Source: Cyanidioschyzon merolae (lineage: Eukaryota). Taken from it: DNA of 64,000 nucleotides. The notes beneath the pieces were generated by a model, which searched no databases, had not been told where the DNA came from, and was given only the letters and a program-made list of their open reading frames with translations. The stretch is from the NCBI GenBank assembly GCA_000091205.1, contig AP006490.2. One strand, written 5' to 3'. Shown here in pieces: positions 991 through 64,000 of this stretch (position 1 is its first letter; the number at the start of each line of letters is the position of its first letter). The translations under genes and the position numbers were made by a program.

Positions 991-2177
991 AAGCGGGGGC
1001 GAAAGCCAGGAAATTTCGATTCGTTTATGCTCCCTTTGTGCAAAGAGTTGACGCGCTCCCCACTGGAAGTGGTTGATGGTGTGGCTGAAGTCTCAGACCA
1101 AGACCCTTGCCGTGCAAAAAAGAGGGTCAGAAAACCTCCGGGCGCATATCCCGTGGCGGGGATCATGATGGTGCGGATTGCCGTTTTCTCGATTGGTACA
1201 GAGATGGTGGTAGATTTTTCGGAGCGATCCGATTATTTGGCGCGGAAAGTTCAGTAAACATTGGGTACGAATGTGCGAAGCAGTTGTCAACGGCCGAGGT
1301 CGCGTTATGTACGTCCTCATTCCAGCGGCGCGGACTGCTGTGCCTACGAGTCGCCTTGACACAGGCAGATCAATATTTTACAGAACGCTCGCTTCGGGCA
1401 TGCCAAATGTGAGGAAAGGAAGAAGATTGGATGCTCATGTGCTTACTAATTGGATGATGATTCGATTACTTTAAAAGTCCCTGTTCGAGAGCGTCGCAAT
1501 GCACCTTGATTCCGGTGACCAAACGAATTTCAGCAACAGAACATCCAAGGGGCCATTTCCAAAAAGCAACATACAGACAGGAAACCTAAAATTACGTACG
1601 AATCCCTAATCACCTATTAATACACTTCGCGTGTCCACTGTTCAAGAAGAATGTTCGGAATATAATGAAAATTCAACAACAGAGCGAGCAGTTCAGTCTT
1701 CCATTGTAGCCTGACAAATATGCACTGCCTACCAATCGATCACCAGCGGATACATTTGGGAGAAAATAGTCCGTTCGTGCGAACTGAAGTTTGCCGAGCC
1801 CGCCGTGAGTGCCAACCACGACACCTGCAGCGCCACCGCTGGCGGAGCATGAAGAAAAAACAGCTTTACCCGTTCCCTGTCGGACTTTGATTCGACAAGT
1901 GCAGCGTTTGGTTGCACATTTACGCGCTTGGAGGTCATTGCGCTCGCTCGTACCCTTCATTTTTATAAACGAACCTGGTACCCGTCCACAACTCGCCGCT
2001 GAAGCCGTGCGACGCGTATCGCAGCCGATGGCGGCATCATGTCCAGTCCGCGCCGGGCGTCTGGCGCGCAGGCGTCGCTCCAGCCGCTCGAGGCGCTTGC
2101 CAACAGATTGAGGCCGAGCGCTGAGCTCCGAACTTCAGCCGCAACAGCGATACGACCTTTGGGCTCGTTTACGAAAC

Positions 2178-3422: not shown

Positions 3423-3699
3423 ACTTTGCTTGATCAGAGGAGCTGAGGCCACATTGAACAATAACCAAGTCTTACGCTTATGAGCACACTCCATGGTATG
3501 TGTACTGGATTCGGGACAGAAGCGCTAGAGGGGCGTGTGCTCCACCTGTTGGCGGGCCACGGAAAGAGCGTGCCAGTAACGTTGCCGCCGGTACTGCTGA
3601 CGGAGATTTTCGTACTCATACATGTGGACGCACAGCTTAGCCTCCTGTTCAGTAGGGCGATCCCTCAGTATCCATTTATCAGGTAGTTGAATTGGTATC

Positions 3700-11808: not shown

Positions 11809-14800
11809 CTCGCGGAACATGCAGGTTTGATGCAAAGTGGTAACCGCTTCCCTTGCTACGAAAAACCATCTCGCAAACTGGAATTTTCTGGTTAGGTTCA
11901 ACGATCGCACGGACTCCAAAAACAGCTGACGACTGAGTGCTGTTGCCTCTGACCTGAGCGGCGCCCCGTTTCCCCTCCGGCGATGCTGGCGGAAGCTTGT
12001 ACTGAGACGCTTGCACCAAGATTCACCCCAGAGGCGCGCAGCATCTGCGACCAGACCGCAATAGCGCGTCTACAAACTCGAACAGACGGAACTAAGAACT
12101 GTTCGAAAAGAAGGTCGCGGGACACGCCGTCTCTGACGTCTCCGGGCGTAGCCGCCGCTACCCAGAGCGCACGCCGTCTGTTCACGCTAACAAGTCGTTG
12201 CAACTTGTGTATGATGCCGCAAACGGTTCCACGGCATTGAAGGCCTTTGGCAAAGGACGCGGTAAGATCAGCACCTGGAGCATTGCTGTTGAAAAAGAAT
12301 TCGCATTCCGCCCGGGCCTATGAGGAGCATTGTCCAGGAGACAAGCTGCGACGCCGGGTTCGCCACAAGACCCCGGCATTGAAATATGCTCTACTCGGAA
12401 TAATATTTCTGGAATACCTCTACCTGGATACCATTTCTGTGCTTGTTTGTATCTCTCGAAGGTATTCAACAAAAGGATACATCCTATGCACTGGAGAAAT
12501 GTTGAGCGAAGACATTATGCTGTTAATGGAAGTTTGCTACAAAGCGCTCGCTTGTCCAAGACAGTCATTCGAGCGATAGCAGGAGGATGAACTGCTCTTT
12601 TCGCAGTCCTAATCCTGAACGTCCTGCACCAGAACGGAACTCATGAAAATGCTATCTATGGGACTGTATAGTGGTCAATCCGCTCCACTCTATTCCTTCT
12701 GTGGAAAATGCTTCCGAAGAAGACAACGGATATGAAATATCCGCACCATTGATACGAACGACAGTGAACAATTGCTGATGGATAAAGAGAAAACCACGCT
12801 TTTTGGAAGACCGCTGCGCGTTCAAAAGCACACGATCGATTTCGTGCTGAAACGCGAACGCTTATATCATGCAAAGCTAATGATCGTCTCACCTGATGAG
12901 ACTTCATTCGGGAGGAATGGCATCTTTTTATGTGAGTCCTCCAAAAAAGGGAAACTGATGTTCGTGAAGAAGAGACAAGCGAGCATGCCGACAACTTCAG
13001 CATTAGCGGAGATTCTGCCGTGCGGTCGACTATAAATCGCCAAACGAACAGGACCATTGAATAATTCATGCTGCGTCGAAGCACTTTGCGGCCTGTACAT
13101 TCCACATTCTTCCGTCCTGCTCTTCCACAGCTTTGCTTTCCATGACTAAAATATGTTCATCGATTACACAGCTGAGATTCGTGCTGAGCTGCTCTTTTTA
13201 CCAACCTCTGATCCTCTTTCAAATCAGTCGAAGGCGCCTCCTTTTTCGAACGGCATTTCTACGCGCACAGATCGATAGACGACTCGTCCGTATCTTTGAT
13301 ACCCATGATCCTTCATAGGTCGTTCTCTACAGTCTCCAGCCCTGACCTGCTCTGCTGCTTCTCCGTGCGTGGGCATGTGGGAGCGGAGAGCCGCGCTGCG
13401 GTCCGTATGCATCTTCGCTATGGAAAGGTGGCGACGATGTACTCGAGGAACGCCAGATACGTGCAAATATAGAAAAGGCAAGTTTCGGTCCCATCGGCCA
13501 TCCAGCGCCTCCGAATTAGGCGAAAAAGAACGAATATCGAGGTTTTTGACTACAAAGATGCCACCACGCCAACTGAAGAAGCTGTGACCAAGGAGCAGAT
13601 CTCTGAGAACGAGTATAAAGCATTCAAATAACTTCGCGGAGAGCATTTCTGGAGCTCCTTCATGCTCTCTCGTTTAGAGGCCGGATAGCGGGAAGAATTT
13701 TCCAAGGACGACGGAGACCGATGGAATTTCAGTCTGTATGGAACTTGCGAAAACCTAAGCCTGGAATGAGCAACGAAACCCGTTTCCAACCGTTCGGGGT
13801 AAGGGAACAGAAATGCATCGTGGGGCGCGTCGTAGCCGTCTCCGTAGGTCTTAATCAAGACGAAGGAGCCCAAATTCTCAACAGAATGCGTACGAATCCG
13901 TTCAATTTATCCAGGCCTCGTTATAATCGGGAGGCGGCCATGGTCACCACCCTGAGGCATACTAACAAAGGGATGACGGCTTCAGCATACGAGTCTCGAC
14001 GCTCTGAGCACCGCTTCGAGAAGCAGAGACGCCTTGCACGCTTCTTTCCCGATAGTGTACATGAACTTCCATGGGGCTTTTTCGAACGATGTATGGCTTC
14101 GGTACATAAAGGTGTGCTGGGGTCAGCGACGGTTTCGGGTGTACGGCGGTAAGAGGCGTGCATTCGCCAACTAGTGCAATAAGTCGAAGAGGAATACAAT
14201 GGATAATTCGCGTCGTTTGGCGGTAGCATACGGTGCTGGTCGTGCTGGAGCGCGCAATAGTTGCGCTCCTGCTCCTTCGACGAGAGCGCACAAGGAGTGC
14301 AGGAATCATCCTGCGCGATTCCAATCGATACATTCGGTACGACGAACACGGTTCATGAGTACGAGTACGCACTGAAACAGTTGGATAGGAAGAGAATGAA
14401 CCAGGGACAGACGCACGAGATGTTGTGCGGTCAACTGCATGGACGTCAGATGGAGAGGCAACCGATCACGAGTTACTTCCTAAGGTTTGATGCTACAAGC
14501 GGCAATGCGCAAAAGCTCATCCCGTGCCGATACTTCAGCGCCTCGATTGACATCCGGAAATGTATCGTGCTTTCGGCGCCTTCAGTGGCTTAGAATCAAG
14601 CGAACGTTCGAGGGACTACTTTAGTATTGAGTATGAGCATTTTACTGGAACGCGTATCGCCTCTGATGAAAAGAAACAGTTGTCAGGAGAGAATGGACTG
14701 CATTCTAGACTGGAGGAAGACGCTGGAGCGATACGGTGCAGATATCCAGCAAAGCCACAGCGCCGTACCTATCCACGTAAAACGATTCTCCCAAGCAACT

Positions 14801-16710: not shown

Positions 16711-17399
16711 TTTTAGAGATCCGTCGCTTGAGAAACAAAGGAACGCGGCACACTATGAAATCCGGCTACTTGGAAGTGCGGATACGAACGATCAAGCGTG
16801 CAGAGAGATAGATCGGTGCGCTGCAGAGCTGATCCACGCTTCTCGGAAGTGCTGAAACAAAAGATCAAGCGTACGATGAACCAGATCACTGCCTCGCGGA
16901 CCTGATACACGCACAACTAGCCAGATCGAGCGCTACTCAAGTTCTGCACAGCCGTTGACTCTTCCAGTACCTTGGAGACACCAGGTTTTCAAAGCGCTAA
17001 CAAAGTTGCAGTTTAGCAGATCTGAAGAAGATCACAAAATCTCTCAACAAACGTATTCGAATCAGGATTACCAGGAAAAAACTGGTCACCGATAAGTCAC
17101 GATTCCGCGTACCAGGTGTGGCGTTCACGAATCCGTATCTATTGTATGCGCTGCTGCGGCGTCATCGCCGAGTGGCATCTCGCCGTTCGGTGAGGGATTC
17201 GTGGAGGCGTAGCGGTGGACGCCTGCGCTCGCCGCGCCTCATCGTGCGGCCTCCAGAGCGCATTCGATTCGCGATGCTCTGCGGCGTGTTTTGATTCTCT
17301 TCCGATGGACAGAGCGTCGTCGCCATTGACCATGGATTCCAGCTTGCGGGATGGATATTTTCATTCGGGAAAGCGTGCATCATGCTGCTGCACCCGACC

Positions 17400-17950
17400 T
17401 CCAAATTCCATTATTTATACTTGCTTTCGGGTGTACTGGTCGTTTTGTACGTTCCATCGTGTGCCGAGAACTTGACTGCACCCGCCTTAACGCTTATACC
17501 GCCGGAGCAGATGCATCACGGAGGCAGAACAGCGTTGCCATACCGCTGAGGGCGTCGGCTCGAGGCGTGGTGCAACTGACTTGGAATCTGGATTCAATAT
17601 CATTCTGGGCTCCTGAAAGTTGTGCTGATAGACCTACTGCCTGCGGCAGCGCGAAGCGATACACTAGGAGTCCACTGCGAACAGTGTGACGCTTAGGCGC
17701 AGCCCATCTGCTCATAGTTCCTGAGTGAACTGCGTTTCGGACATGCTGCTCAGATCTCGCCACAGCACCTGCCTCTGAGGGAGCGTATGAAGAATTCGCC
17801 TAGCAGACTCGTCCGGCTCGCTGGACCTTACGCCTGTAGGGTAAACTTTCGACATTACGGAGAGCTTTTCGTGCTTTTAACGCTTACCGTAGAGGGGCAA
17901 GGAGATTGTTATCTCGTTTCGAGTTCGTGGTCAGCCACTGTTCTTTTTAT
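17400..17950 (+). repeat. Rep1 copy A: ~550 bp interspersed repeat that forms the 5' module of the Fanzor-like element at 17400-20825
   Basis: Colinear with 51400-51950 (ctatcgtgtgccgag...cacggag.cagaac.gcg.tgcc.tacc...gggcgtcggctcgaggcgtg...ctaggagtccactgcga...ctcgccacagcacctgcc...agactcgtccggctcgc) and, over its first ~170 bp, with 56230-56400. Confidence 0.7.
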
Positions 17951-18211
17951 GCAGCGCGGTCGAGACACGCACCACCAAACCGAGCAGGAATGAGAAACGA
18001 CGCGCATCTCGCGGTTGAAGGGATATGCGATCCTGATCATTATCGCGTAGTTCTAAATTACAAGATGCGTCCAGGCTGAAGCCATGACAAAGTATAGTGT
18101 TTCATCTCAATTGTTTTTCGACCATCAAGTCAGTGTATTCACGTGATTTTTCGGGGCTTTATAGCAGAAGCGTTCTAAATACGTTCGTTTTCAAAGATAA
18201 GAAAGGAAAAA

Positions 18212-20220
18212 TTGGGGGGTGCAAGTCGAGGATCCTGGAGGGCCGGTATCGTCGGCTGCCGTAAAAAAAACGAAAAACAGAGCAGCATAAAGGGCAGCAA
18301 GACAAGACGAAGAACCAGAAGCAAGAGGCTATCAGAAACCGTGTCGCGTCCTCCTCCATGGGTGTTTGGGAGGCTTCTTCAAGGACGATGCATTTGGTGA
18401 AGGAGATGGATCGCGACGTCGCGGATATCAACACAGTCGAGGCTCCGGAAGAATTTTTTAACAAGACCTTCATCTGTCTCCTGATGCTTGACACGGGGGA
18501 AACGTCGAGGAGAAATGAGGGAGTGCACGCCCTCCACGAAAATCACGCCGAATTCCACTTCAACAAGACTAGATACAGGGGTGACGCGGATATTTATATT
18601 TACGGGGCCATCAAGTGCCTCATGAACCTGAAGAACCACTTGGCCATGAACGTCAAACGCTTCATGATACGTTCCATCTTTGCACCCTAGCCGGGCCTGT
18701 CTCGGAAAGAGATATGAGCATCATAAACGGCATCACGAACGATAGTAAGAATGAACAGGAGATCGAATTCGTCGACAAGAAGACATCACACAGGAGAATG
18801 AATGAAGCTTCTGTAAACCGTACGACTATTAAAGAGCACCGCGCGGCTCTGGGGCTGGTCAACCCAATAGAGAACGTATCAGATATGGAAAAAGATAAAA
18901 AAAGCTGTTCCCTTATACTGCGCTATGCCGTTTTTCTGAACCGAGAGCATGAACGCAAGGCAGTGATGGAGCCGGATGTGGAGCATAATGAAGAGTCGGA
19001 GAAATGGAAGGCTGCGCTTCCAGAGAAGCGCTTCAACGTCGTTCCGATATGCAACATCAAGTCGCATTTTGTGGCAATCGACTCCAGCGTCCTTCATGAC
19101 ATTATGAAGAGGATCAGTACGGAGTTCGATATAAGGAGGGAGGAATTTATTGGTGAAAACCCGTAGACTTACTGGTAAATTATATTCGACTTGAAGCGCG
19201 TCAACACGAGCAAGAGAAAGATTTTCAGGGCGACGATCGAAAGCGATGGAATCTCGGTATATGTGCACCCTGCAGGCGCCTAAAGGTAGATCGTCCAGTT
19301 CCGTCTTCGTTTTCGCACTTGACGGAGCAAGCAGACAAGAACGGGGTCCTGATGCGTACAAGGCACAGGAGAACGACTTCGTAGTCGGCGCGGATCTCGG
19401 GAACACGAATGTCATGACCGTAGCAGTAGCCAAGTGTGGGGAAGCTGGCATCGAAGGCAACTTACGACAAAAGGACATGCGTCTTTTAAAGTTCTCAATA
19501 GCGAGATACTACCGAGAATCGGGAATGGTGAATCCGAAGGGAAAAAGATAGAAATGGATCTCAGGAGTGAAGGGGCATCTGGGAGCGATCAGCCTGGTGA
19601 CTAGTCGAAGTGCGAACTTTCCAGCTTTGCGGGAATTCATGAAAGTTCGTGCTGCTCATGACGAGGAGCTGTGGAAAGAGTATACAAAGCCCCGGTGGGC
19701 TCGTCAGCGTATGAAATTGTACCATGGGAAGCGACATGCATTCTCCAATCTCTTCAACCAGTTGAGCGCTATCAAAGAGACCAAGAGTCAAAGGCTCGTA
19801 GTAGCATCCGGAGCAGGACGCTGAGCGTCAGGAAAAGGGAGCATACCGATTCCGTCGACTCCAGCGTACAAGGAGTGCGCACACCGTTTTGTCACAATAC
19901 TGGTAGGTGAGTTTCGAATGTCATGCATAGACCACGAGCTGGGGTGTAAAGTTCAGAAGGTCGAGATGGAAAAGTGCCAGCGGAGCGCTGAGGATATAGA
20001 AAAGCACGGAGAGCTGACAGAACAGGAAATGGAACGCAGGGCGCAAGTTCGAGGACGACACGCATTACTGATTACAGCCAACGAGCAGAGAAGCATGGAG
20101 TTCGTGAATCGAGACTTTGACGCCGCTACAGATATATGGAGATATGCGGTGCCGGAGAGGAGACTCCCGGCGCTGATGGGAGCGAATTTTCTCGAAATAC
20201 CACATAGCGAATGCATGTAG
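18212..20220 (+). pseudogene. TnpB-like (Fanzor-like) RuvC nuclease pseudogene, copy 1, broken into at least five frames
   Basis: Fragments 18358-18690, 18615-19166, 19246-19551, 19567-19824 and 19918-20220 are colinear with the copy-2 protein. It retains GADLGNTN (RuvC-I-like) and FVNRDFDAATDI (a degenerated NAAINI motif). Confidence 0.65.
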
Positions 20221-45901: not shown

Positions 45902-46900
45902 GGGTGCTACCTGGGAGCCGAGTCCTAGTGTTGACTCCCGGGCATCGCTGTGACGATGTTTACCATGAAGGTTGTGATTCCTGGAATATCTATAACAGGG
46001 CTGGTGCTTGCCTCCGATAGTTTTTTCTCGATGGTATGCCCTCAAAGGAGCATATCGTGTAGACTGGGGTACCGCCATGGGGAAGCTGGATGCTAGAGCT
46101 GCTCTCTAGAATAAACCGAACTATTTTTTGATTTTTGTTGTGCATACGCGAGAAGCGTGCATTTGGGCACCTGTTCATGGAGTTGGAAAAGGAAACGACA
46201 GATACGTTGCGTCGCTTGGTGGTAGCGTATGGCGCTGGATTGCTAACGATCGGGAACAATTGCAGCACACCTGCACCGTTGACGTGCGTGTCCAATGCGT
46301 GCAAGCATCGATGCTGCACGATTCCCATCGATGTGTTCAGAATGCTATACAAGTATCACAAGCAACATTGCACGCTGAAACAGGTGGACCATACCTGCGT
46401 GAAACAGAGCTGGATGCACGGAATGGAGTGCGGCAAGCGGAGCGAACGTCAGACGGCGAGGCAGTGGAAGGTGACCGGCATTCTACGCTGCGATTCTCTG
46501 ACACCTAGTGCATGGTATCACTGTCTGCTCCGAAACTTGACCCTATAAGATCAACGTCCGGTAATATCTTGTGTTTTCAGAGCGTCCAGCGGCTTTACGT
46601 CGAGCGCGCTTACCAGGGAATATGGGAGTACTCAGTATAGGCAGTGGTGTGAAGCGCGGAAGACTTGTGACTAAAAAATCAATGTGCTGGAGAAAGTGAT
46701 TGGAAACTCGTCTAGTGCGAGACACTGGTATCAGGTGGTTCAACAATCAAGCCCGAAAAACTGAAGCGCCGTCGATGCATACTCGGAACCATTTTCCTGC
46801 GCAACTGGTGTACCACACCATCGTGATCCATCATGATTCGATAGATACCAGGGAAAAGGCCTTGTGTACGTTGGGCACGTTCGCGTTTTGCTGCTGAACC

Positions 46901-51399: not shown

Positions 51400-51950
51400 C
51401 ATGAAGCACCAGCCTTCAAGTTCCATTACCCATACTTCCTCTCGGATAGACTGGTCGTTACGTATATTCTATCGTGTGCCGAGTGTCTGCCTCGAGCACC
51501 CGCCATAGCGCTTATATACCGCTGAAGCAGGTGCTGCACGGAGACAGAACGGCGCTGCCGTACCAGTCAGGGCGTCGGCTCGAGGCGTGATTCATCCGAC
51601 GCGGGGTCCGGGAACATAACCATTCTAGGAGCCTGCGACAGTGCGAACCGATCTACTAGGAGTCCACTGCGACCAGGGCGACGCCCGGATGCAGCTTTAC
51701 TGCGTCTATTCCCAGAATGAAATGCGTTGTAGAGGAGCTGCGCACGTCTCGCCACAGCACCTGCCACAGAGATAAGCATGAAGCACTAGCTAGCCCTGCA
51801 GACTCGTCCGGCTCGCGGGACCTTCCGCCGAGAAGGTAAACCTTCGAAGATACGGAAGCTTTTCCCCTATCAACGCTTATCATACAGGTCGAACGAAACT
51901 GTTATCGAGTTGCTAGTCAGTGGTTAGATTCTGTTCTTTCTTCCCCAGGA
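51400..51950 (+). repeat. Rep1 copy B: solo copy of the 5' module of the Fanzor-like family, ending ~50 bp upstream of the DEP/DUF547 ORF
   Basis: Colinear with 17400-17950 over its full length. Confidence 0.7.
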
Positions 51951-51999: not shown

Positions 52000-53637
52000 A
52001 TGCGATTCGCAGACCCGAAGCCGCAGGCGTCGATACAGACACCGTGCTGCGCCAGCCAGTCGCAGCCTGCTCGCTTCGAGGCGATACCACGTCCAGCGAG
52101 CCAGTCGTGCAGCGCGGGAGGCAAAGCGGTTTCCATGGCTCCCGCCAAGAGCGACGAGCAAGTGGTGCCAGACGTGGCTTCCGAACGAGGCACACCGCAG
52201 AGAACAAGTCTGGAAAGCTTGTTCGAGGAAGAGTCGCTCGCACAGGGAGAAAGGGTACGTTCGCAGGTATCCCGCCTGGGGCTGCGTCGAGCACCTCCCC
52301 TGGCTAGTCAAGGCGACGAAAGCATAGAAACTGCTGCGAGCCTTCCTGAGACGGAGGTTGAGTCTTCCGTCCAGACAGAGAGCAGGCAACGCAGCGAAAG
52401 CGTTGGCGTCACCGTGGACCTGGAGCAGGTCTATAACCGGTTGCGCGACTCGCAGACGGGTCTGCAGCTTGCTGACCGCCGCTGGCGACTAATCACGTAT
52501 TCCCGCTGCTTCGTCGGATCCGAGGCGGTTCAGTGGATGCAGATCAACCTGGGAATATCTCGTGAAGAGGCCATTGACCTGGGCCAGCGACTGATGGATG
52601 CTGGTTTGTTTCACCACGTGACCTACTCGGAGCCGTTTCGTGATGGAAACTTCTTTTACGCTTTCCAAGAGGACGAGGAATCGAACGTTCTGAATACGAA
52701 ACTAATATGGGATCCGACACGGCGGCCACGGGACCCGGTTGTCGTGGCAAAAGAGCTGATTACCCGCCTTGCGCTGCTCTGCGAGGTCTTTCGCCATCCA
52801 TCCAATGCGAACGAGGTCGACTTTGAAAGTCTCCGGTCGAGTGACGCGTTTCGCAAGTACACCTTTGCGGCAGCTGAACTCCAGCGGGTCGATTTAGGGC
52901 CGCTCAGCCCGGAAGAGCGCCTCTGCTTCTTTTGCAATGTGTACAACGCGCTCTGCCTGCATGCTCACGTCGTCCATGGACCACCGAATACCGTGCTTCG
53001 GCGATGGAGCTTCTTCAAGTCGCTTAGCTACCGAATAGCGGGAATGGACTTTACCCTTGATGACATTGAACACGGTGTTTTGCGCGGGAATCAAACCCGT
53101 CCCTATGGCTTGATCCGACAGTTCCGGCCGGGCGACCCCCGCATGCAGTACGTGCTGAGTCGCCGCGACCCGCGCATCCATTTTGTGATCAGCGCGGGTA
53201 CGCAGAGCGATCCGCCCATGCGCATTCTCGATGGCGAGAATATCGATGAAGAACTTCACTTTGCCACAGAATCGTTTCTCGAAGAGAGTTGCAAGGTATC
53301 CGCATCTGCTCTTGAGGTGACGTTGCCGCGAATTTTTTCTTGGTATCGAGACGACTTTGCCAAGGGGAATCTTGAGCTTTTACGATGGATTTTGCCGTAC
53401 CTGGGTCTGGAGAAGCGGCGAGCGCTGGAGTCGATGCTTGACAATGCCAAGAGTGACTCGAGCATATCGATACGATACGAGGCATTCACCTGGAATGCAG
53501 GGGCCCGCTTCAGTGCTGCCATTGTTCGCCGCAAACGCAGACGATTGGAGCAGGAGCGGGCGTCATCGCAGCCGCCTGCCGACGAGGAACCTGCTGCGGC
53601 TACTGCCGCAAGCCCTGTTTCGAGCAAGCCAGCGTAA
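52000..53637 (+). CDS. DEP-domain plus DUF547-domain protein. Alternative start at ATG 52135.
   Basis: DEP-like RWRLITYSRCFVGSEAVQWMQINLGISREEAIDLGQRLMDAGLFHHV. DUF547-like LCFFCNVYNALCLHAHVVHGPPNTVLRRWSFFKSLSYRIAGMDFTLDDIEHGVLRGN. Confidence 0.7.
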   Translation: MRFADPKPQASIQTPCCASQSQPARFEAIPRPASQSCSAGGKAVSMAPAKSDEQVVPDVASERGTPQRTSLESLFEEESLAQGERVRSQVSRLGLRRAPPLASQGDESIETAASLPETEVESSVQTESRQRSESVGVTVDLEQVYNRLRDSQTGLQLADRRWRLITYSRCFVGSEAVQWMQINLGISREEAIDLGQRLMDAGLFHHVTYSEPFRDGNFFYAFQEDEESNVLNTKLIWDPTRRPRDPVVVAKELITRLALLCEVFRHPSNANEVDFESLRSSDAFRKYTFAAAELQRVDLGPLSPEERLCFFCNVYNALCLHAHVVHGPPNTVLRRWSFFKSLSYRIAGMDFTLDDIEHGVLRGNQTRPYGLIRQFRPGDPRMQYVLSRRDPRIHFVISAGTQSDPPMRILDGENIDEELHFATESFLEESCKVSASALEVTLPRIFSWYRDDFAKGNLELLRWILPYLGLEKRRALESMLDNAKSDSSISIRYEAFTWNAGARFSAAIVRRKRRRLEQERASSQPPADEEPAAATAASPVSSKPA

Positions 53638-53654
53638 ATACGCGCTCATCACTC

Positions 53655-54077
53655 CTACGACGCAGAAGTCTTTGTTTCAGATCGGAGTCGTCCCAGTTCA
53701 TGTTTGATGAGCTGGCTGCGTCGCTTCCTTGCAACCATCACGCGAAACCGATCAAAGTCGGTTAACCGGGCACGCACTCGTTGCTTTTCAACCTTTTGAC
53801 CCCATGCAGTTTCCCGGAAACGCTGCACAGCCTGCTGCGCCTCAAGAGCTTTCCGTACGACGCTCGTTTTGCAAGCACGAGGCAACTTAACGACCACGTC
53901 CGTCAACTTCAAGCGCTTCACGTTGATGACCGTACGAGGGACTCCGGAGTCGGCCGTGGCATCAATCACAACATGACCCTGATCCTGGATATCCACGATA
54001 ACACAGATCTTGTCAGCATGCTCACCGTAGCTGATAATACACAGTCGGCCAACTTCCACAAACCTTTTGAAAGCCAT
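53655..54077 (-). CDS. RPL14: 60S ribosomal protein L14e
   Basis: MAFKRFVEVGRLCIISYGEHADKICVIVDIQDQGHVVIDA shows the KOW-like N-terminus of eL14. Basic C-terminal tail. Convergent with the DEP gene, 17 bp apart. Confidence 0.8.
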   Translation of the reverse strand: MAFKRFVEVGRLCIISYGEHADKICVIVDIQDQGHVVIDATADSGVPRTVINVKRLKLTDVVVKLPRACKTSVVRKALEAQQAVQRFRETAWGQKVEKQRVRARLTDFDRFRVMVARKRRSQLIKHELGRLRSETKTSAS

Positions 54078-54329
54078 TCCTGTTCGTGTGAACTGCGTAC
54101 CAGCGAGGCAACGCGGTAAGGAGCTAGTTGCAAAAGCACGCGCGCCCGTCGTGGACGACCATGCAGGCGTCCGCCGATCGATCGGCGGCTCATGTGGGAT
54201 AAACCTGAATCTTTAGGAACAAAAATGATAATTGTGGAATGAAACTGACACACAGCACGTATGACGTCGACGGGTACTTCCAGCTGCGAGGCTTGACGTA
54301 CATGCTTCGTTTCGTGCGGGGCGTCACGC

Positions 54330-55022
54330 GTGACCACAGCGTTCATGAACAGCGGGGCTGTCGGTCTCTGGCGGCGACAGACCTGGGCTCTTTCTGCGCT
54401 TTCACGGGCTGCTACAGGGCTATGTCCAGCCCTGCGGCCGCTTGCAACTGAGGCGACTGACACCAACGGCAGTAGCGTCGGCAGCGGCGGCAACGGCCAA
54501 ACGGCTGCAACGGGCAGGCCTGAGGACGTTTCCGCAGAACGAACGTCGGTCACTGCACCGCCACAGTCGTTCCCAGTAGCTGCGGAGCTCGTCGGCATAC
54601 CGCGAAACGTTTACGACTCGTTGCCAGAACCTGTGCAGACGGCACTGCTCGCGGAGTTCGCCACAGGGGAACAGCTCCAGACCTGGCGGGAGCGCGTTGC
54701 AGTGAGAGCCTTTCAGCGACACGAACTCGACACGGGCTCTCCCGAGGTGCAGATCGCTATTCTGACCACTCGCATAGCGAACCTGACCCGACACTTGCGA
54801 CTCCATAGGAAAGACGTGAGGACGAAACGAAGCCTGGAGCATATCGTCGCACAACGCCGAAGACTTTTGCGATACTTGTTTCGCACAGAACCAGGGCGCT
54901 ATGAGGACACCGTGGAGCGACTCGGTATTCGCTCGGGTTCTCTTGTGGATCCACAGACAGAACGTCGTGCACGTCGACCCGGTGATCTGAGTGTACCCAC
55001 CGGCAACCGTAATCGACCTTGA
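54330..55022 (+). CDS. Bacterial-type ribosomal protein S15 with N-terminal extension (nuclear-encoded organellar S15)
   Basis: TGSPEVQIAILTTRIANLTRHLRLHRKDVRTKRSLEHIVAQRRRLLRYLFRTEPGRYEDTVERLGIR matches the bS15 core. About 100 aa of N-terminal presequence or extension. Confidence 0.7.
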   Translation: MTTAFMNSGAVGLWRRQTWALSALSRAATGLCPALRPLATEATDTNGSSVGSGGNGQTAATGRPEDVSAERTSVTAPPQSFPVAAELVGIPRNVYDSLPEPVQTALLAEFATGEQLQTWRERVAVRAFQRHELDTGSPEVQIAILTTRIANLTRHLRLHRKDVRTKRSLEHIVAQRRRLLRYLFRTEPGRYEDTVERLGIRSGSLVDPQTERRARRPGDLSVPTGNRNRP

Positions 55023-55480
55023 GCATGACACCACATGATCGCTGCAGGTCTCTAGATGAGGGCAGTACCGACCCACGTCGACGTCGTCGTGTTGGTAGAA
55101 AAAAAAGCCATGCGAAGAGAATGATGCGCTGATGAATGCGCTCCCAGCAAGAATGCATACTGCCGGGAGGCGTTTTGCGCTACGTTGGACGCCTACGAAA
55201 GGGGCGAGAGCGGCGGCCCTGGCAGTGAACCGTTGGCGCTGCTTCGGCGCTGTTGGATGAGGTGCTTTGAACCAATCCAAGCGCTTTCCAAGTCGGTCAG
55301 AGATGACGGCGACAACAGAATTGAATAGAATTGAGAGGTACTCGTGTCTACCCCGGTTGTCGTTCTGGTGCTGGCGGCAGGCAATATCGGTTTCAGCCGT
55401 AAACGCTTCGCTGCATTCCTGGTCGAGCAGCAGCAGACTCGCGTCGAGCTGATCTACGAGGTCGTTTCTGCCGCTCCAGA

Positions 55481-55502
55481 CACAGACACACACACACACA
55501 GA
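55481..55502. repeat. (CA)n microsatellite
   Basis: Direct read. Confidence 0.85.
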
Positions 55503-56229
55503 GCCATATGCGCTGTGACTTTTCCCTGTCCAAGCTTTTGTTCTGCGTTCTTCGAGACAGTTATGGGCCAAATAGCTCCTGATGCTCTGTTGCAGTTCCT
55601 GTCGACGCCATTGTCGAGCATCCTTTGCCGCAGGTCAGGACGAGGATCGCTCGTCCTCAGAGTGAATCCGACGGCCGGTGGCGCCGCTCGTTGTGCCCAC
55701 TCGACCCTTCCCGTAGAGGTCGTTGCCACCGATGAGCACCAAGTCTGAAGCACCGGCGCCACGCACCGCCGGCGTTCGGCTGCGAGTGCTAGGTTTTCGC
55801 TCCCTCTCGGGTTTGTACACGAACCAGTAGAAAACTGCGCCCGCAATCGACCAAGCAAGCAGGTTCCTGCTAAGCGGAAGCTGAAACCCCATGGCCACGT
55901 CCAGCACGTTTACCAAACAAACTCTAGTTCTATTCAGGGACGCCTTTTTTCCTCGACAAAGCGAACGAGGTACCGCGACCAAACCCAGTTAGCCAGCGTA
56001 CGCTATCGCGTCGCTTGGTCGCTGCGTGAACCGCACGAAACCTGCTGCTCCTGTGGAAGTGTACTCGACTCGGACGAAAACTGACTGCCAGTGTCACGAG
56101 AACCCTGCGCGAATTATTTTCATGGACAAAACGTTTCCTTAGGCCAGCGATCTCCGATTATGCGCTTTTCCTTTCTTTTTGTGTTTTTTCTCAGTGCACG
56201 GTGAAGTATCCATCAAACCCCTACCTCCA

Positions 56230-56400
56230 ATTTACATTTCCTATACTTCATCTCGGATATTCTGGTCATCTCACAAGTCCTATCGTGTGCCGAGCCTGCC
56301 GAAAGAGACCGCAATGGCGCGTGTAGCATCGGTGCGGTCGCTGCACGGAGACAGGACGGCGTTGCCGTACCACACAGAGGGCGTCGACTTGAGGCGTGGT
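56230..56400 (+). repeat. Rep1 copy C (first ~170 bp only)
   Basis: ctatcgtgtgccgag...gctgcacggagacaggacggcgttgccgtacca...gggcgtcgacttgaggcgtg matches the 5' part of Rep1 A and B, then diverges. Confidence 0.55.
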
Positions 56401-58398
56401 ATCGAGAGTGTCCCTGTTGTCTCGTCTTCTGGGGTCACCAGTATCATCCACTACGCAGGGATACCGTCGATGCCAGGTGTTTTGCGGTTGCTTGAGCATA
56501 GCACGGTCCGAACAGATTCAGGCCAGAAGATTGGGTCGTTCCATTCCGGTACCGGGTCGAGGCGCGGTAGTTGTGCAGCATATCGGTGCCAATAGATTCT
56601 GTCCTGGCAGTGCCCAGTTGCGTCTTCATGCAGCTCTGTCCAGTGGTCTGTGCAGGCCTCATTCACTGAGGCACTCTCCGTCCTCAGCGCCTCCTTTTAA
56701 CAGTTGGTGTGAGCCCCAGGCACTTTTTTGGTGGGTCCAGTCTCGATCGAATATAGCGCCAGGTCTCATTCTCGTTGGTGCTCTCTAGCATAGATTTCGC
56801 CAGGGAGGCGATTTTGCGGTTTCGATCCTCTCGTTTGTCTTCTCTGGGAAGTTTCTTCTTTCTTTTGATAGCATCCTCATGTTCCGCCTGTAGCGCCGGT
56901 AGCGCTGCCTTCGGTTCCTCTTCTCCGGCGTTGGCATGTATGGCGGTGCGGTTGACGATCTTGTTGAGTCGGTGGCATTCATCATTCCGAGTTTTGGTAC
57001 GTCGTTTCAAGAACTGAGGTTTGCAACTGTTGTGTTCTGGTCCAAGCAGTCCCAGCTCTCTGGCAATCTTCTGATTCCCATCTACAAACTCGCGTCCTAG
57101 TTGGTCTCAAAATCTGCATGCACGGCTTTTCGGATCTACAGCGCTGTGAGTAAGTGACTGGGTTTGGCGACGGCTTTCTTGGGTTCCCGCTGGGGCACTC
57201 TTTCAGGGGATCACTCATGATGGGTTCGTTCGGGAGTTCTTCTCTCTATTCTTCTGTTTTTTCTTGTTGGTCTTCTTCTTCTTCGGGCTCTTTCCTGAGC
57301 TGCTTTCTCTGGATATTTTGCATCTAGGTGGATCATGAGGTTTCTGTGCCTCCTTCTCCGTATCTGGTTGGGTCTCTTTACCTAACGCAGAGTCCTCCAC
57401 TTGTATCAGTTCTTCGTTACAGTACTGGTAATTCGATATCTCGTCGTCTAGTATCGAGGCTGTCCCACAAATATTCCATGATGCGAAACTTATCGAGTCG
57501 TGGCGCGTAAGGGAATAGGAGTAACGCTGCGGTGCTCCAGAGATACGTCGTCGATTTAGGTGCACCCTCGACGAGGTGTGTGAACGCACATGCCACAAGC
57601 GCCTCCCGCATTCCAGTCGTTCATTGAGTGCTTGGCGCAGCGCTAGCATAGAATCAGAAGTACTCTAGTCAAGGTCGATTCGAATGCGACCGTTACGCTG
57701 CCGGACGCGTGAAGCTACCCGCAACCACAGGGGATACTCTATGAACCACCCTTTCAGCAGCTTCGTGTCCGCTCCCCAAATACATAGGCGGGCAAGTCGC
57801 TTATTCCAGCTTCGACCGCGAACATGCTGCCAGCCGTCTTCCAAAATATCCGCCGAGATTGTTTCCAAAGTTGAGGTAGGTACCCATGGTAGGTGGTAAA
57901 ACGGAGCCCGAGTTCGAGGATGGATCTAGGATTTGCGCCCGAACCTGCAGCGTTATTTCGAGAGCAGCGGATAACTACTCAGAATTCTCGTCAATATTTT
58001 CTGCTGCTACTGCCTCCGCCCCTCCGTTCGTTGCGGTCAAGGTCCGTGTCGTGGGCTCCCTTCGTTGTCGCACGAACACCACGGTTTAACCCACTTTCAG
58101 AGCTTCTGCGGAAAAACTGGACCCCTTAGGCGGGCGTGATGTGTAGAGCTTTAAGATAGTTGGTCTTTAATAAATAGTTTGCGACTAGTTTGCATTGCGC
58201 TCGGTGAGCACGCCTGGGAGATCCGGCAGGCATGAGACACGACGCACATGTTGCCGTTGAAGGGGAACGTGATCCTGATCTCTAGCATGTAGATCTAATG
58301 TAAAAGTTGTAATTTCTTTAACTTCATAGCCAAGTACAGTTTTTCAGTTCATTTTTGTTTCAAACCTCAAGTAAAAATATTCAATTGATTTTTAGCAG

Positions 58399-58409
58399 TA
58401 TATAATAGA
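58399..58409 (+). promoter_or_regulatory. TATA-like motif (gtatataatag) in the conserved leader, ~55 bp upstream of the first ATG of the nuclease gene. The copy-1 counterpart ctttatagcag is at 18157-18167.
   Basis: Conserved position in both element copies. Promoter function is inferred only. Confidence 0.35.
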
Positions 58410-58454
58410 AGCGTTCAAAGAGCGTCCTTTTTCACAAAACAAAAAAGGAAAGTC

Positions 58455-60715
58455 ATGAAAAAGCAAGTTCACGATTCTAGAGGCCCAGGGTCGCCGGCTG
58501 CCAGAAAAAAACAAAAAACAGTGCCGAGTCCAGAAGAAAAGGAAGAGAAGAAGGACCGAAAGGGGAGGTCGTACGTCGAAGGCGGCAAGATAGACGGCTG
58601 TACGACGAGATGGTGGTGAAAACCTTTCTTCTTGGACATATCAAGGATCCCTACAGAGAAAAGTTGCGAGACGCTATCAAAAAACGTGTCGACTCATACT
58701 CCAAGAGTATTGTCAAGGCGTCGTCAGGACTGATGCATTTGGCGAGGGAGATGTATCGCGACGTGACGGACATGGAAACGGTCGAGATTCCAGACGAGTT
58801 CTTCGACAAGACCTTTATTCGTCAGCTGATGCTTGGTACAGAGGAAACGCGGAAGGAAAATGAGCGGGTTCACGCTCTTCACGAAAACTTCGCGGAATTC
58901 CGCTTCGAGAGTAATCGATACAGAGGTGATCGGGATATTTAGACATACGGAGCGAAAACGCACATCACGAGTCTGAAGTACCATTTGACAGTGAACCTCG
59001 AACGTTTCATGATACGCGCCGTGGTTGCACTCTACCCGGGCATCTCTCGCAAAGGAATATGGGCGATTATCAATGGCATCACGAAAGATCGTAAGCATGA
59101 AGATGAGATCGAATGCGTCGACAAGCAGGCGTCAAACGAGGGCACGAATGAGGATTCTGTAATCCGTGCGGCTAAACAAGAGCATCGTGCGGTACTGGGG
59201 CTGGCGAATCCAACAGACAAGATATCGGAGTTGAAAAAAGAAAGATATTATCGCCTCGTCCTGCTCTATTTCGTGTTTCTGGACCGAGAGCTCGAACGCA
59301 AAGCAGAGATGAAGCTGAGCGAAGAGATAAATGAAGAGTGGGAGAGACGGAAGGCTGTCCTAATGGGGAAGCGCTTCAACGTGGTTCCAATGTCAAATAT
59401 CAAGTCACATTTTGTGACGATCGACTCCAGAGTCCTTTATGGCATCATGAAGGAGATCAGTCCGGAGTTCGATGTTAGCAGGGAGGAGTTCACCAGCGGA
59501 AACCGGCAGACATGCTGGAAGAGTATCTTCGATTTCAAACGTCTCAAAGTCAGCAAACGAAAGGTATTCACTGGGATGATCGAGACCGATGGAGTAGCCT
59601 TGTGTGTACACTATCGGCGATTGAAGAAAGATCGTCCAGTTCCGCCCTCGGCTGCGCCTGTGACGAAGGATGCAGAAAACAAAGAGGAAGATCCTGCGAC
59701 GCAGGAGGTGGAGGATAACGACATTGTCGTTGACGTGACGAAGGATGAAGATGAGAAGGTGACGGATCCTGCGACACAGGAGGTGCAAGATAACGACCAT
59801 GTCGTTGATGCGGCGAAGCATGAAGATGAGAAGGAGGAGGATACCGCGACGCAGAAAGTGCAGGATAACGACTTTGTCGTTGACGTGGCGCAGCATGAAG
59901 ATGAGAAGGAGGCGGATCCTGCGGTGCAGAAAGTGCAAGATAACGGCTTTGTTGCTGGCGCGGACCCCGGGAATACGAATATCATCACCATCGCAGCACC
60001 GAGGCGTGCGGAAGATGGTACTGACGGTTCCTTGCGTCAGAAAGACTTGCGTCTTTTGAGGTTCTCGAGAGCAAGATACTATCGAGAATCGGGAATCATG
60101 AATGCGAGGAAGAAAATTCCTGCATGGAATGCAGGAATGAAGGATCACCTGGAAGCTTTGAGCGAGGTGACGAGCCGAGGAGCAGACTTTCAAGCTTTTC
60201 GGAAATTCATGGAAGTTCGCATTGCGCGTTGGCATGCACTGTGGGAGGAGTATACCAAGCCTCTGTGGGCTCGTCTGCGAATGAGTCTATACGGCGGGAG
60301 GCAGCGCGCGCTCGCGAACTTTTTCAATGAGTTGAGCGCACTCAAAGAGGATGAGAGTCAGAGGCTCGTAGTAGCATACGGAGCAGGGCGCTGGAAGACC
60401 CAAAAAGGGACTACGCCAGCTCCAACGACAAGAACTTACAAGGAGTGTGCAAGGCGTTTTGTTACGATACCTGTACATGAGTTTCGAACGTCCTATACAC
60501 ACCATGAACTGGGGTGTACACTTCAGAGGGTCGAGATGGAAAAGTGCCAACGGGGTCCTGAGGAAATAGGAAAGCACGGAGAGGTGACTGAGCAGCAAAT
60601 GGAAAGGAGGGCGAAAGTGCGAGGGCTACTTGCATTAGCAAATACAACCACTGATGGCAAGGAACGTATGGAGTTTGTGAATCGTGACCTTAATGCCGCT
60701 ATCAATATAAGGTGA
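58455..60715 (+). pseudogene. TnpB-like (Fanzor-like) RuvC nuclease, copy 2. Near-intact: one frame break near 58600, one in-frame TAG at 58940-58942, and a main 576-aa ORF at 58985-60715.
   Basis: Lys-rich N-terminus (MKKQVHDSRGPGSPAARKKQKT..., NLS-like). RuvC-I-like [45 protein letters not shown] (Zn-finger-like). C-terminal FVNRDLNAAINIR, the TnpB/Fanzor RuvC-III motif. The TAG lies where copy 1 has TAT. Confidence 0.75.
59690..59989 (+). repeat. In-frame 75-bp (25-aa) tandem repeat x4 inside the copy-2 nuclease ORF, ending in the RuvC-I motif
   Basis: The units [75 protein letters not shown] and [22 protein letters not shown] follow one another. Copy 1 has a single unit (KAQENDFVVGADLGNTN). 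Confidence 0.9.
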
Positions 60716-61146
60716 TGTGCGGTGCTCGAGAGCAGATCTCCAGAGTCGACAAAAGAAAACGTTATTGGCCAGCCTCTAAAAGTTGAACTATATGAGAAAC
60801 AATTGGAAGCAGTGGCAGGTGGCCGCTCCAAAAAGACTGGCAGCCATCAGCACGTCAGTTGGAGATGTCTAGCCTAGGGCGCGGTTGCCGCCACTACTGT
60901 ACCACAGGCAGCAACGTTTTTCTTTTGAAAGACGTTTGTTTCCAGGGGTACGCTCTCGTACACCACCGTTCAGTACAGTGCAGTGCAGTGCAGTTTGGTA
61001 CAGAGTACTGCTCATCAAGTGAACACAAGGTCTAGCTACGCTCTTCGTGCACAGGCACTACGCAGAGCTACCGAAGAAAGTGTAGGAACCCTGTACAGAC
61101 TCAGAGCGCTGGAAGAGAGAAAAGGCTCTGACACGTAGTCGGCAAT

Positions 61147-63003
61147 ATGCTCGTGAAGGCTCCGCTTCCGACTGCTGAGGAGCTGCCGCAGGCCAAGGGC
61201 GCAGCGCACACGGTTGGGAGCAGCACGCCCACCGATGTGCAGGATACAGACCGTGCACTGGACCTGGAGAACCTGAACCTGGACTCCAACACGGAAGTGT
61301 CTCTGATAGCCGCGGACTTGCCCCCAGAAAGCGACGAGGGTAACACGGAGTACAAGCGGCAGCTGGTGCAGCCGTCACCCCAACGTTTCGCAGAGCTGGT
61401 GACACAACTCAAGTACCGCATGGCAGCGGGGCACGGGGAAGCTATGTACCAGCTAGGGTACGACGATGACGGACGCGCACGTGGTGTTCCAGAGGACGTT
61501 TTGGAGGCCTCAATTGAGACCGTGGAACGCATGGCTGCAGAGCTCCGAGCAGACGCCACCGTGTGGCGACGGGCTCGCGGACGCGACGGCTGGGTCGCAC
61601 AGCTGCTCATTCGAGCGCGACCGCGAAGCTGCGAAGAGTTTACGGATACTCGTATTTGTGTATCTGGCAATGTGGACGCGGGCAAGTCCTCTCTTCTCGG
61701 TGTATTGTGCGGAACCGGCCAACTCGATAACGGACGAGGTCTGGCACGAGCGCAGGTCCTGACACATAAACACGAGCTGGAGAGCGGGCGCACCTCGGCG
61801 ATTAGCATGCAGCTCATGGGATTCGACAGCGCCGGTCATGTGGTGAACTACACGAACGTTACCACGAATCGCCAGCTATCCTGGGCTGAGATCGTCACAA
61901 ATTCATCCAAACTAATCACGTTTTGTGATCTCGCCGGGCACGAAAAGTACCTCAAAACGACAATGTTCGGCCTAACGGCACATGCACCAGACTATTGTAT
62001 GATGGTCGTTGCCTTGAATCAAGGCGTGCTGCGAATGACCCAGGAACACTTTGCTATAGCACTTGCGCTCAAGATTCCAGTTTTTGTTGTTTTCTCCAAG
62101 AGTGACCTGGCACCTGCCAACGTTGCCGAGCATACCATCAGCGTCATGACGCGTATGCTCAAGTCGAGCGGTGCTCGCAAAATCCCCGTCCTGGTGAACT
62201 CCCTGGATGAGGTGAGCATCTGCGCGCGAAATATCCCGAACGACCGCATGGTACCGATGTTTGTGGTCAGCAATGTTACCGGAGCCGGACTCGATCTACT
62301 GCGAGCGTTTCTGAACCTGTTGCCATGGCGTCACGACTGGAACGAGCGGAAGAAGAGCGCTTTTGCCGAGTTCACCGTCGATGATCACTTCAGCGTACCA
62401 GGAGTTGGCACAGTTGTTTCGGGCGTGTGCCTGCGCGGTGTTCTCCAGCAGGGACAGAGCGTTTTTCTGGGACCCGATCGACATGGTCATTTCGCGCGCA
62501 TTGCGATCAAGTCCATCCACTACAAAAGGGTCCCTGTGCAGCGACTATATGCCGGTCAGTCGGGATCGTTGGCGCTCAAGAAAATTCGCCGTGAGCGTGT
62601 TCGCAAAGGCATGGTGGTGCTGAGCACCGCTGGCTTCTCCAACGGAGCCAAGTCGGGGTCGTCACCGGCAGCGTCCGGAAACGGGAATACGCCGACGACG
62701 CCCGTATCTGTCATCGAGTTCGAAGCGGATGTTGCGCTCATGTACCACAGCACGAGCGTCCGGGCGGGCTACCAACCGATCGTTCACTGCAGTACGATCC
62801 GGCAGGCCGCCCAGGTGACCTGGATGGATCGCGACGTGGTGCGCATGGGTGAGCGTGCACGCGCTCAGTTTCGCTTCCTCTACCGCCCTGAATGGCTCCG
62901 GGTCGGTGATCGTTTCTGTTTTCGTGAAGGAAGGACCAAAGGTATTGGTCATGTGACGCGCCTTGTGGAGTGCTGGACTCGTGACCTCATCACGATAAAT
63001 TGA
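61147..63003 (+). CDS. GTPBP1/GTPBP2-family translational GTPase (AGP-1-like)
   Basis: EYKRQLV, G1 motif GNVDAGKSSLLGVL, DLAGHEKYLKTT (G3) and FSKSDLAP (G4), followed by EF-Tu-like beta-barrel domains, characteristic of GTPBP1. Confidence 0.8.
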   Translation: MLVKAPLPTAEELPQAKGAAHTVGSSTPTDVQDTDRALDLENLNLDSNTEVSLIAADLPPESDEGNTEYKRQLVQPSPQRFAELVTQLKYRMAAGHGEAMYQLGYDDDGRARGVPEDVLEASIETVERMAAELRADATVWRRARGRDGWVAQLLIRARPRSCEEFTDTRICVSGNVDAGKSSLLGVLCGTGQLDNGRGLARAQVLTHKHELESGRTSAISMQLMGFDSAGHVVNYTNVTTNRQLSWAEIVTNSSKLITFCDLAGHEKYLKTTMFGLTAHAPDYCMMVVALNQGVLRMTQEHFAIALALKIPVFVVFSKSDLAPANVAEHTISVMTRMLKSSGARKIPVLVNSLDEVSICARNIPNDRMVPMFVVSNVTGAGLDLLRAFLNLLPWRHDWNERKKSAFAEFTVDDHFSVPGVGTVVSGVCLRGVLQQGQSVFLGPDRHGHFARIAIKSIHYKRVPVQRLYAGQSGSLALKKIRRERVRKGMVVLSTAGFSNGAKSGSSPAASGNGNTPTTPVSVIEFEADVALMYHSTSVRAGYQPIVHCSTIRQAAQVTWMDRDVVRMGERARAQFRFLYRPEWLRVGDRFCFREGRTKGIGHVTRLVECWTRDLITIN

Positions 63004-64000
63004 GATGGAGTTGCGAAGCGGGCTGCAGCACATTTTGAGCAGCGCTCCAGAGAAGCTACGCTGGCGGTGGCACGCTTACCACGAATGCAGCGCAGAACGG
63101 TAATTGATGCGGGAAGCACGACGCTGTGAAGCTTTGTGTTGCATGATGCGGCATGTATCCGGGGCTTTGGTTGTGAGGAAAATGCGGGTTCAGGCGCTCT
63201 TGAGGCGTTGACAGTGCAAAGCATGTTCATTCGAGGTACATTGTCCGTGCGATATGGTTGCGGGCTCGCACATCTGGAGGAGGACTCTACGGGACTCGAG
63301 CTATCGGTGATGCAAGACCCGGGGGTACGAAAGCTAGCTGGCTAGCTAGCTGGCTGAGCGCCGAGGCCCCCTGCAGGACAACCTGGTGCATATTTGTGCA
63401 AGTCCTCGCAAATCGCTCGACAAGACATGCGGCCTCGTGTCTGGAACTGCACGCGTATCAGATGCCGCGGGAATACCAGACCGCTGGCTCTATTCCTGCT
63501 TTGCGATCTTTTCGGAGCCTGTTCAGACTTATTGTCTCTATTTTCAAATTTAAGCGATAAGGGCTTACGGATTCAGATGCAGTTCTAGGATGCTGTGTCG
63601 TCGTTTCGGAGACGTTCGTTCGAGTCTCTCTGCCACTGCAACTCGTTACGTCAGTGGAATCAAGATGCTACGCGGCATTCCGGAATGTGCGTTCGTAAAA
63701 TAACCGACAGCATGATGCCGTGCATGTGAGCAAGCTTCCGTGCTTCTTGTTGCTCCATGAAACACCGCCATGAACTCGTTCACATGGGTCATCGCAGCGA
63801 TAACTTCCAGCAGGGCGTGCGTCGACGTTTTGCATGAAGCGACCAGAGACGCATCGAAGTTTCGTGACGTGGTATCCAGCGTGGATTCCCATTCCTCTAC
63901 CAGTTCTATCATGGGCAACGTCGAGTTTCACAAATCCTCGGTCGAATTGAATGGAGCGTGCTTGCGCGTGCAGCTGGCACAGTGCTCGCCGAACAGATCG

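Follow-up and report, generated by a model that had tools for sequence, protein, structure and literature searches.

A stretch of about 2.75 kb in a 64,000-nt window of nuclear DNA from Cyanidioschyzon merolae 10D (contig AP006490.2; all coordinates refer to this window) is, with a probability that we put at about 0.9, a degenerate, non-autonomous copy of a transposable element carrying a Fanzor1 gene, the family CMe-1A. Judging from its sequence relatives and its predicted fold, the long open reading frame (ORF) of this copy is a Fanzor1 by descent and by fold, from a branch with a degenerate zinc site in the TNB domain. The copy cannot make a full Fanzor1 protein, because a 1-nt deletion and two in-frame stop codons break its frame, and it has been drifting as a pseudogene. 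A first-pass annotation of the sequence had placed a near-intact gene for a TnpB/Fanzor-like RuvC nuclease here. Its choice of family was correct, and the copy belongs to a family that had already been published.

The element core and the parts of its reading frame are as follows:

58192-~60940 (+): core of the CMe-1A-like Fanzor1 element, ~2.75 kb, delimited by blastn coverage against 73 related loci
58455-58561 (+): start of the ancestral ORF, with its ATG at 58455, in another frame than the rest; the N-terminus of homologue P0067 is collinear with that frame
58610-58942 (+): in-phase N-terminal coding segment, presumed WED/REC part, ending in the TAG at 58940-58942
58985-60715 (+): 576-aa ORF, ending in TGA; it covers the remainder of REC/WED, an insert of acidic repeats and a RuvC domain that holds a degenerate TNB insert
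59690-59952 (+): 75-bp tandem repeat (Tandem Repeats Finder), 3.5 copies, encoding acidic 25-aa units directly upstream of RuvC-I
60716-60877 (+): former C-terminal tail, still open in frame for 53 codons before the original stop, TAG at 60875-60877; the reading frames of homologues P0005 and P0008 continue through it

Assignment to Fanzor1

The 576-aa ORF has 84 close homologues, all from hot-spring-type metagenomes, with E-values down to 4e-291, which goes far past anything expected by chance. The best of these (P0001, 752 aa) is 76% identical across the whole ORF. The sole precomputed Pfam label among the homologues is PF26935 (DUF8286), which is a weak match. An exhaustive HMMER search with the family profile (E <= 1e-3) retrieved 2,521 cluster representatives with a typical length of 600-700 aa, and among ten relatives that were looked up the only named one is a hypothetical protein of the green alga Tetrabaena socialis.

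The link to Fanzor1 comes from a profile of 40 diverse members of this clade (alignment A5). Compared with the PDB, this profile matched only PpFz1 from Parasitella (1.3e-21), SpuFz1 from Spizellomyces (7.1e-15) and GtFz1 from Guillardia (1.7e-9). Neither the single ORF sequence (phmmer) nor the narrow family profile reached a Fanzor or TnpB chain in the PDB, and Pfam and NCBIfam gave nothing significant either; hence, the wider clade profile was needed.

The predicted structure points in the same direction. An AlphaFold model of the window ORF, built from the 40-member clade alignment, had a mean predicted local distance difference test score (pLDDT) of 74.9 and a predicted template modelling score (pTM) of 0.68, with low-confidence parts limited to the acidic repeat insert and one loop. 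The insert is predicted to be disordered (pLDDT <50 across ORF residues 218-313). The model contains a putative WED/REC region and a split RuvC fold, and the top seven Foldseek hits obtained with it were all Fanzor1 (E 3.6e-11 to 3.3e-8). An alignment of near-identical Cyanidiales copies alone was shallow; it gave a pLDDT of 43 and was not used. The family call of the first pass is therefore upheld by the clade profile, and the split-RuvC architecture that it anticipated is found in the model. Its expectation of significant profile matches holds for the solved Fanzor1 proteins, but not for the TnpB models of Pfam and NCBIfam, which stayed below threshold.

P0082, at 38% identity the most distant of the close relatives found (662 aa, TNB region without Cys), occupies positions 1553-3541 of locus L002, directly downstream of an ORF for a DDE_3 (Tc1/mariner-type) transposase (412-1599). 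This order of transposase and then Fanzor is the arrangement described for several Fanzor1 elements.

Active site and zinc site

Three residues of the window ORF would form the catalytic site:

59963-59965 (+): putative RuvC-I catalytic Asp, GAC in G-A-D-P-G (D327), invariant in the 40-sequence clade alignment
60479-60481 (+): putative alternative (rearranged) RuvC-II Glu, in H-E-F-R-T-S (E499), an invariant column of the same alignment
60686-60688 (+): putative RuvC-III catalytic Asp, in N-R-D-L-N-A-A-I-N-I (D568), with R567 and D568 at least 90% conserved

By alignment, the window copy appears to retain the complete triad D327/E499/D568, and the motifs quoted in the first pass (G-A-D-P-G-N-T-N, YKECARRFVTIPVHEFRTSYT and FVNRDLNAAINI) are all real. 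SpuFz1 and PpFz1 have their DP motif at the aligned position of D327, whose codon is GAC or GAT in 65 of the 70 BLAST-aligned copy segments. The RuvC-III motif FVNRDLNAAINI contains the codon of D568, which is GAC or GAT in all such segments (69/69). In the RuvC-II block YKECARRFVTIPVHEFRTSYT, E499 aligns with the motif dE[FY][RK]TS that PpFz1 and SpuFz1 have there. A Gly (VVAYGAG) stands at the canonical RuvC-II position, and the acidic residue lies 33 residues downstream. A rearranged glutamate has been reported for all Fanzors (PMC10530073). Its described place, after the fifth strand and before the TNB domain (PMC11423790), fits the arrangement in the window.

The Cys/His cluster noticed in the first pass is present as HH-x3-C-x10-C, but it does not form a CxxC...CxxC zinc ribbon. 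No CxxC occurs in 38 of the 40 sequences of the clade alignment, the window copy included, and many of them have only 0-1 Cys. Nearly all of the branch (2,521 cluster representatives) is without CxxC...CxxC and has, instead, a conserved VRGLLWC.ST motif (A5).

Lesions of the window copy

Three lesions interrupt the frame:

58561/58562 (+): lesion 1, a 1-nt deletion (frameshift) in the run GAAA/GGGG; L001, L040, L004 and L070 are each one base longer
58940-58942 (+): lesion 2, TAG where a 53-sequence alignment gives ancestral TAC (Tyr)
60713-60715 (+): lesion 3, a premature TGA replacing AGA/AAA (Arg/Lys), in common with the orthologue L074

The first-pass annotation had located the 576-aa ORF on the + strand and the in-phase segment ending in TAG correctly. 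It had further held that only two lesions, a frame break near 58600 and a TAT-to-TAG change at 58940, separate a near-intact copy from a protein of ~750 aa. This description was too favourable. There are three inactivating lesions as well as private missense changes, the third lesion being the TGA. The frame break is the deletion at 58561/58562. The TAG is real, but its ancestral codon was TAC rather than TAT. Since 53 codons follow the TGA, the repaired protein is ~807 aa long.

The 1-nt deletion recurs only in the orthologous locus L074, and splits the ATG at 58455 and its basic leader from the remaining frame. An intron at this point, which the first pass had considered, was rejected because the alignment with the four paralogues shows a single-base deletion and no intron-like sequence. 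Read from the ATG at 58455, the N-terminus is indeed Lys-rich as had been claimed, with Lys or Arg at 18 of the first 52 repaired residues. The leader thus resembles a nuclear localisation signal, a function that is putative.

In the 53-sequence alignment the TAG is confined to a clade made up of the window copy, L040 and L004, and the remaining sequences have TAC. A BLAST-based count of 12 copies with TAG was a gap-placement artefact, and the multiple alignment leaves three. The presence of the TAG in the paralogues L040 and L004 indicates that this sub-lineage was already defective when it last multiplied. The codon at 60713 is AGA or AAA in 38/41 aligned copies and a stop in only 3/41. In addition, of 170 positions that are well conserved in its family, the window copy differs at 10 (e.g. 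R427L).

Age and selection

The first pass regarded the family as very recent and possibly active elsewhere in the genome. Our results suggest otherwise. DNA identity between copies is about 73-86%, so that they differ by ~15-27%. Among the 72 Cyanidiales loci of the metagenome set, a near full-length ORF is kept only by L001 and its 99%-identical duplicate L003; even in L001 the long ORF ends early and its ATG is out of frame. An environmental contig, L074, is collinear with 54034-64000 of the window at ~98-99% identity, and has the orthologous insertion with the identical deletion, TAG and TGA. Beyond these, L074 has a compensating insertion (+1), and its RuvC-I Asp is replaced by Gly. Taken together, the lesions, the shared TAG, the orthologous copy, the divergence between copies and the lone ORF of L001 indicate an old, mostly dead family.

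The number of 75-bp repeat units varies between elements, from ~0-1 to 7 (it differs in P0002, P0008, P0067 and L074), and L074 has one unit fewer than the window copy.

The ratio of nonsynonymous to synonymous substitution rates (dN/dS) of the window copy against its paralogue L001 is 0.40, which is consistent with past selection on the protein of the family. The value of 0.37 against the orthologue L074 was discarded as evidence of selection, since the underlying differences are clustered: 18 fall in 57000-57250, 11 in 58000-58250 and 23 in 60250-60500, compared to 0-4 per 250 nt elsewhere. This clustering inside repeats suggests gene conversion among element copies or, alternatively, a chimeric metagenome assembly.

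Ends of the element and other copies

The origin of the window from C. merolae 10D is apparent from five ORFs flanking the Fanzor copy, whose translations match GenBank proteins of this strain (BAM79753-BAM79763) exactly. The copy lies between a DEP/DUF547 gene (52000-53637) and a GTPase gene (61147-63003).

The ends of the element were mapped by coverage. The number of aligned loci rises from ~8 to ~37-46 at 58192 and falls to 0 past ~60940-60953, and alignments of the flanks show sharp junctions. The core recurs in more than 40 metagenome loci at ~80-85% identity, with nearly all copies broken. In all, 71 related metagenome loci have the same ends, and other copies occur inside the window. 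No inverted match of at least 8 nt was found between the two ends, and thus no terminal inverted repeats (TIRs). Helitron-like ends were considered and rejected, as the element lacks both a TC at its 5' end and a CTRR at its 3' end. No candidate transposase was seen within 58192-60940, where the only other long ORFs are overlapping ones on the reverse strand, and the neighbouring ORFs that were tested gave no Pfam match.

A second and more degraded Fanzor1 copy lies at ~17984-20202 (+). It is spread over three frames, with ~56% amino acid and ~73% nucleotide identity to the copy described above, and a 3' terminal module could not be recognised in it. There are also two short fragments (13995-14300 and 46153-46485, both +), which have 37-41% amino acid identity to the RuvC half and may be relics of older or different Fanzor1 subfamilies.

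Several repeats adjoin the 5' end. A 636-bp unit (57549-58184) lies directly upstream of the element in the window and has an inverted copy in L023, while a wider upstream stretch (56831-58191) is contiguous with the Fanzor core in L004, L008, L009 and L047. The unit or the wider stretch may be the TE-N2_CMe part of CMe-1A. Alternatively, TE-N2_CMe could be another segment of ~650-715 nt that precedes many copies (L005, L036, L058, L070), and which itself begins with a copy of the 3' terminal 55 nt of the element. A third repeat of ~290 bp, ending in an A-run, is found at 56113-56400 (- strand), and also at 51400-51589 and 17393-17571. In at least six loci (L014, L016, L017, L020, L023, L031) it abuts the Fanzor 5' end exactly at the equivalent of 58192. 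This repeat may represent a retroposon that uses the same target, or else belong to the element as a variant of its 5' part.

At the other end, ~15 nt past the terminal hairpin described below (TTTGYTTCCAGGGGT-like; 60938-60953 in the window) are common to 4-5 otherwise unrelated copies (flanks of L038, L043, L057, L059 and L067). One explanation is a subfamily whose right end is ~15 nt farther out; the other is a target (guide-like) sequence common to these copies.

A candidate guide RNA at the 3' end

The guide RNA of characterised Fanzors originates in the 3' terminal part of the element and extends beyond its right boundary (PMC10530073, PMC10432273). In the window, two features occupy the corresponding place:

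60725-60940 (+): candidate scaffold of the guide RNA (omega-RNA/fRNA), overlapping the end of the ORF and running to the right end of the element
60913-60936 (+): predicted terminal hairpin, with a 10-bp stem and a 4-nt loop, immediately before the right end (z = -3.1 in this copy)

Other predicted parts are a stem at 60725-60743 and a long-range helix between 60811-60819 and 60891-60900. The terminal hairpin, the strongest of these predicted parts, has z < -2 in 19/41 copies, with at least three unrelated stem sequences. Across the 41 copies, 81.6% of the cells in the predicted helices are paired, compared to 35-58% in slid controls. The structure tested in this way was assembled from individual folds, and is compatible with the copies. 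RNAalifold found no consensus structure in the 3' alignment, and an Rfam search of the 3' region gave no match. A guide-RNA scaffold at this position is plausible, but has no support from covariation. The terminal hairpin could equally be a DNA signal for transposition.

By homology with the characterised proteins, the intact ancestor would have been a Fanzor1 of ~800 aa with a basic N-terminus, a WED/REC region and a split RuvC domain with a triad of D, rearranged E and D. Such a protein would bind a transcript of its own element's 3' end. Sequence directly beyond the right end would then serve as guide, and matching DNA next to a short motif would be cut. Guided cutting of this kind may help the element to persist or spread.

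Alternative explanations

One might argue that the window still holds a functional, essentially intact Fanzor gene, in which a small intron or programmed frameshift accounts for the frame break, and readthrough or sequencing errors for the stops. The frame is mostly open (576 aa, 110 aa and 53 codons), the putative triad is retained, and the nominal dN/dS against the orthologous copy is as low as 0.37. Yet, this explanation is extremely unlikely. The break is a single base missing relative to four paralogues, in a place without intron-like sequence, and the TAG and TGA are not sequencing errors, because they recur in the independently assembled contig L074. In addition, the RuvC-I Asp is gone from this orthologue, conserved positions carry 10 changes private to the window copy, and the value of 0.37 is unreliable given the 23 differences within 250 nt at 60250-60500 versus 0-4 elsewhere. 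A different view is that an internal start allows the 576-aa ORF to be expressed alone. The product would be a Fanzor derivative, whether truncated, domesticated or regulatory, and would lack the N-terminal ~175 residues and the C-terminal tail. The persistence of a long ORF with an internal ATG at 59009 and with the whole RuvC domain inside it would agree with this idea. However, such a protein would be missing an N-terminal part of the domains by which RNA and DNA are held in the solved Fanzor1 structures (PMC11423790), the catalytic Asp is mutated in L074, and the element is one among many decaying copies. Moreover, the exact ORF product was not found in a collection of 15 billion proteins that contains the neighbouring annotated C. 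merolae proteins, which indicates that it is not annotated with the bounds 58985-60715. We therefore consider a protein of this kind highly unlikely.

The chance that the ORF encodes another RuvC-fold nuclease, such as a transferred bacterial TnpB or Cas12 or an unrelated RNase H-like enzyme, is close to negligible. The clade profile matches Fanzor1 chains only, the seven best Foldseek hits are all Fanzor1, the Gly at the canonical RuvC-II position combined with the downstream Glu is the arrangement of Fanzor and TnpB2 (PMC10530073), and the one named relative among the ten looked up is eukaryotic.

Some of our results weigh against a degenerate CMe-1A copy with a Fanzor1 gene and a 3' guide RNA. 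Standard models do not recognise the protein: the window ORF matched no Pfam family at E <= 1, P0001 reached only E 0.23 against the Pfam TnpB models, the 40 clade members reached at best E 0.0012 (3 members), and the NCBIfam model guided_TnpB scored 11 bits (E 0.14), where its cut-off is 100. In the stretch from the Glu to the RD motif, the window copy has HHELGC-x10-C without CxxC in place of a CCCC zinc finger. This finger has been called strictly conserved in TnpB and Fanzor (PMC3627910), and is seen in SpuFz1 and ISDra2 (PMC10432273). Because it is missing, the catalytic competence of even intact family members is only putative. At the 3' end, covariation across the 41 copies did not exceed that in shuffles, and the conservation of non-coding positions (0.85) equals that of third codon positions (0.86), so that there is no sign of extra constraint. 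On the 5' side the boundary is ambiguous, since at least three different upstream sequences join at 58192, and the published CMe-1A consensus is somewhat longer than the 2.75-kb core. Finally, the family name CMe-1A is an inference that draws on host, size, copy number and divergence, and on the absence of TIRs.

Implications

Very little follows from the locus itself, which is one dead copy of a transposon family published in 2013, in the paper that named Fanzor. The absence of the zinc finger across a large Fanzor1 branch and the invisibility of this branch to standard domain models are only mildly new points. With nothing but a weak DUF8286 label, and with standard TnpB models missing them, such Fanzors will keep being overlooked by annotation pipelines.

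A clade without the usual zinc-finger hallmark merits a biochemical test on a reconstructed consensus. C. merolae is an acid-loving thermoacidophile that grows at 42-45 °C. Possibly, the large branch of 2,521 representatives lost the CCCC zinc finger yet keeps the triad, and a consensus-repaired member together with its 3' RNA would be an active, heat-tolerant nuclease without a zinc ribbon, in a family that spread without a transposase by guide-directed homing. We regard this scenario as doubtful.

Comparison with known systems

ISDra2 TnpB (8H1J) and Cas12f are bacterial proteins of ~400 aa with a canonical RuvC-II glutamate and a CCCC zinc ribbon, and bacterial TnpB models (Pfam, NCBIfam) do not recognise the protein of the alga. 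In IS200/IS605 elements, ISDra2 TnpB has a TnpA partner, whereas the window element has no such gene.

The solved Fanzor1 proteins SpuFz1 (8GKH), PpFz1 (9CF0) and GtFz1 (9CER) resemble the window protein in overall fold, domain order, the DPG of RuvC-I, a Glu just before the TNB insert, the RD..NAA..N of RuvC-III and a basic N-terminus, and a 3'-end RNA would be expected in both cases. In contrast, amino acid identity is only ~10-16%, and the window protein lacks the CCCC zinc finger and has a 3.5-copy acidic repeat before RuvC-I.

Bao & Jurka (2013, Mob DNA 4:12, PMC3627910) described one Fanzor1 family in C. merolae, CMe-1A, with ~150 copies that are each ~80% identical to the consensus, ~3 kb long and without TIRs; its class is unknown, and some copies are intact. 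They explicitly called it an old family (PMC3627910). Our element differs in that the core mapped here is 2.75 kb, the window copy has three lesions, and the published 5' part, the 635-bp TE-N2_CMe, is either missing here or represented by the 636-bp repeat at 57549-58184. It agrees with CMe-1A in host, multicopy nature, a length of ~3 kb, the lack of TIRs, ~80% identity, a Fanzor1 protein as the only product and a majority of broken copies. The element is almost certainly the Repbase family CMe-1A.

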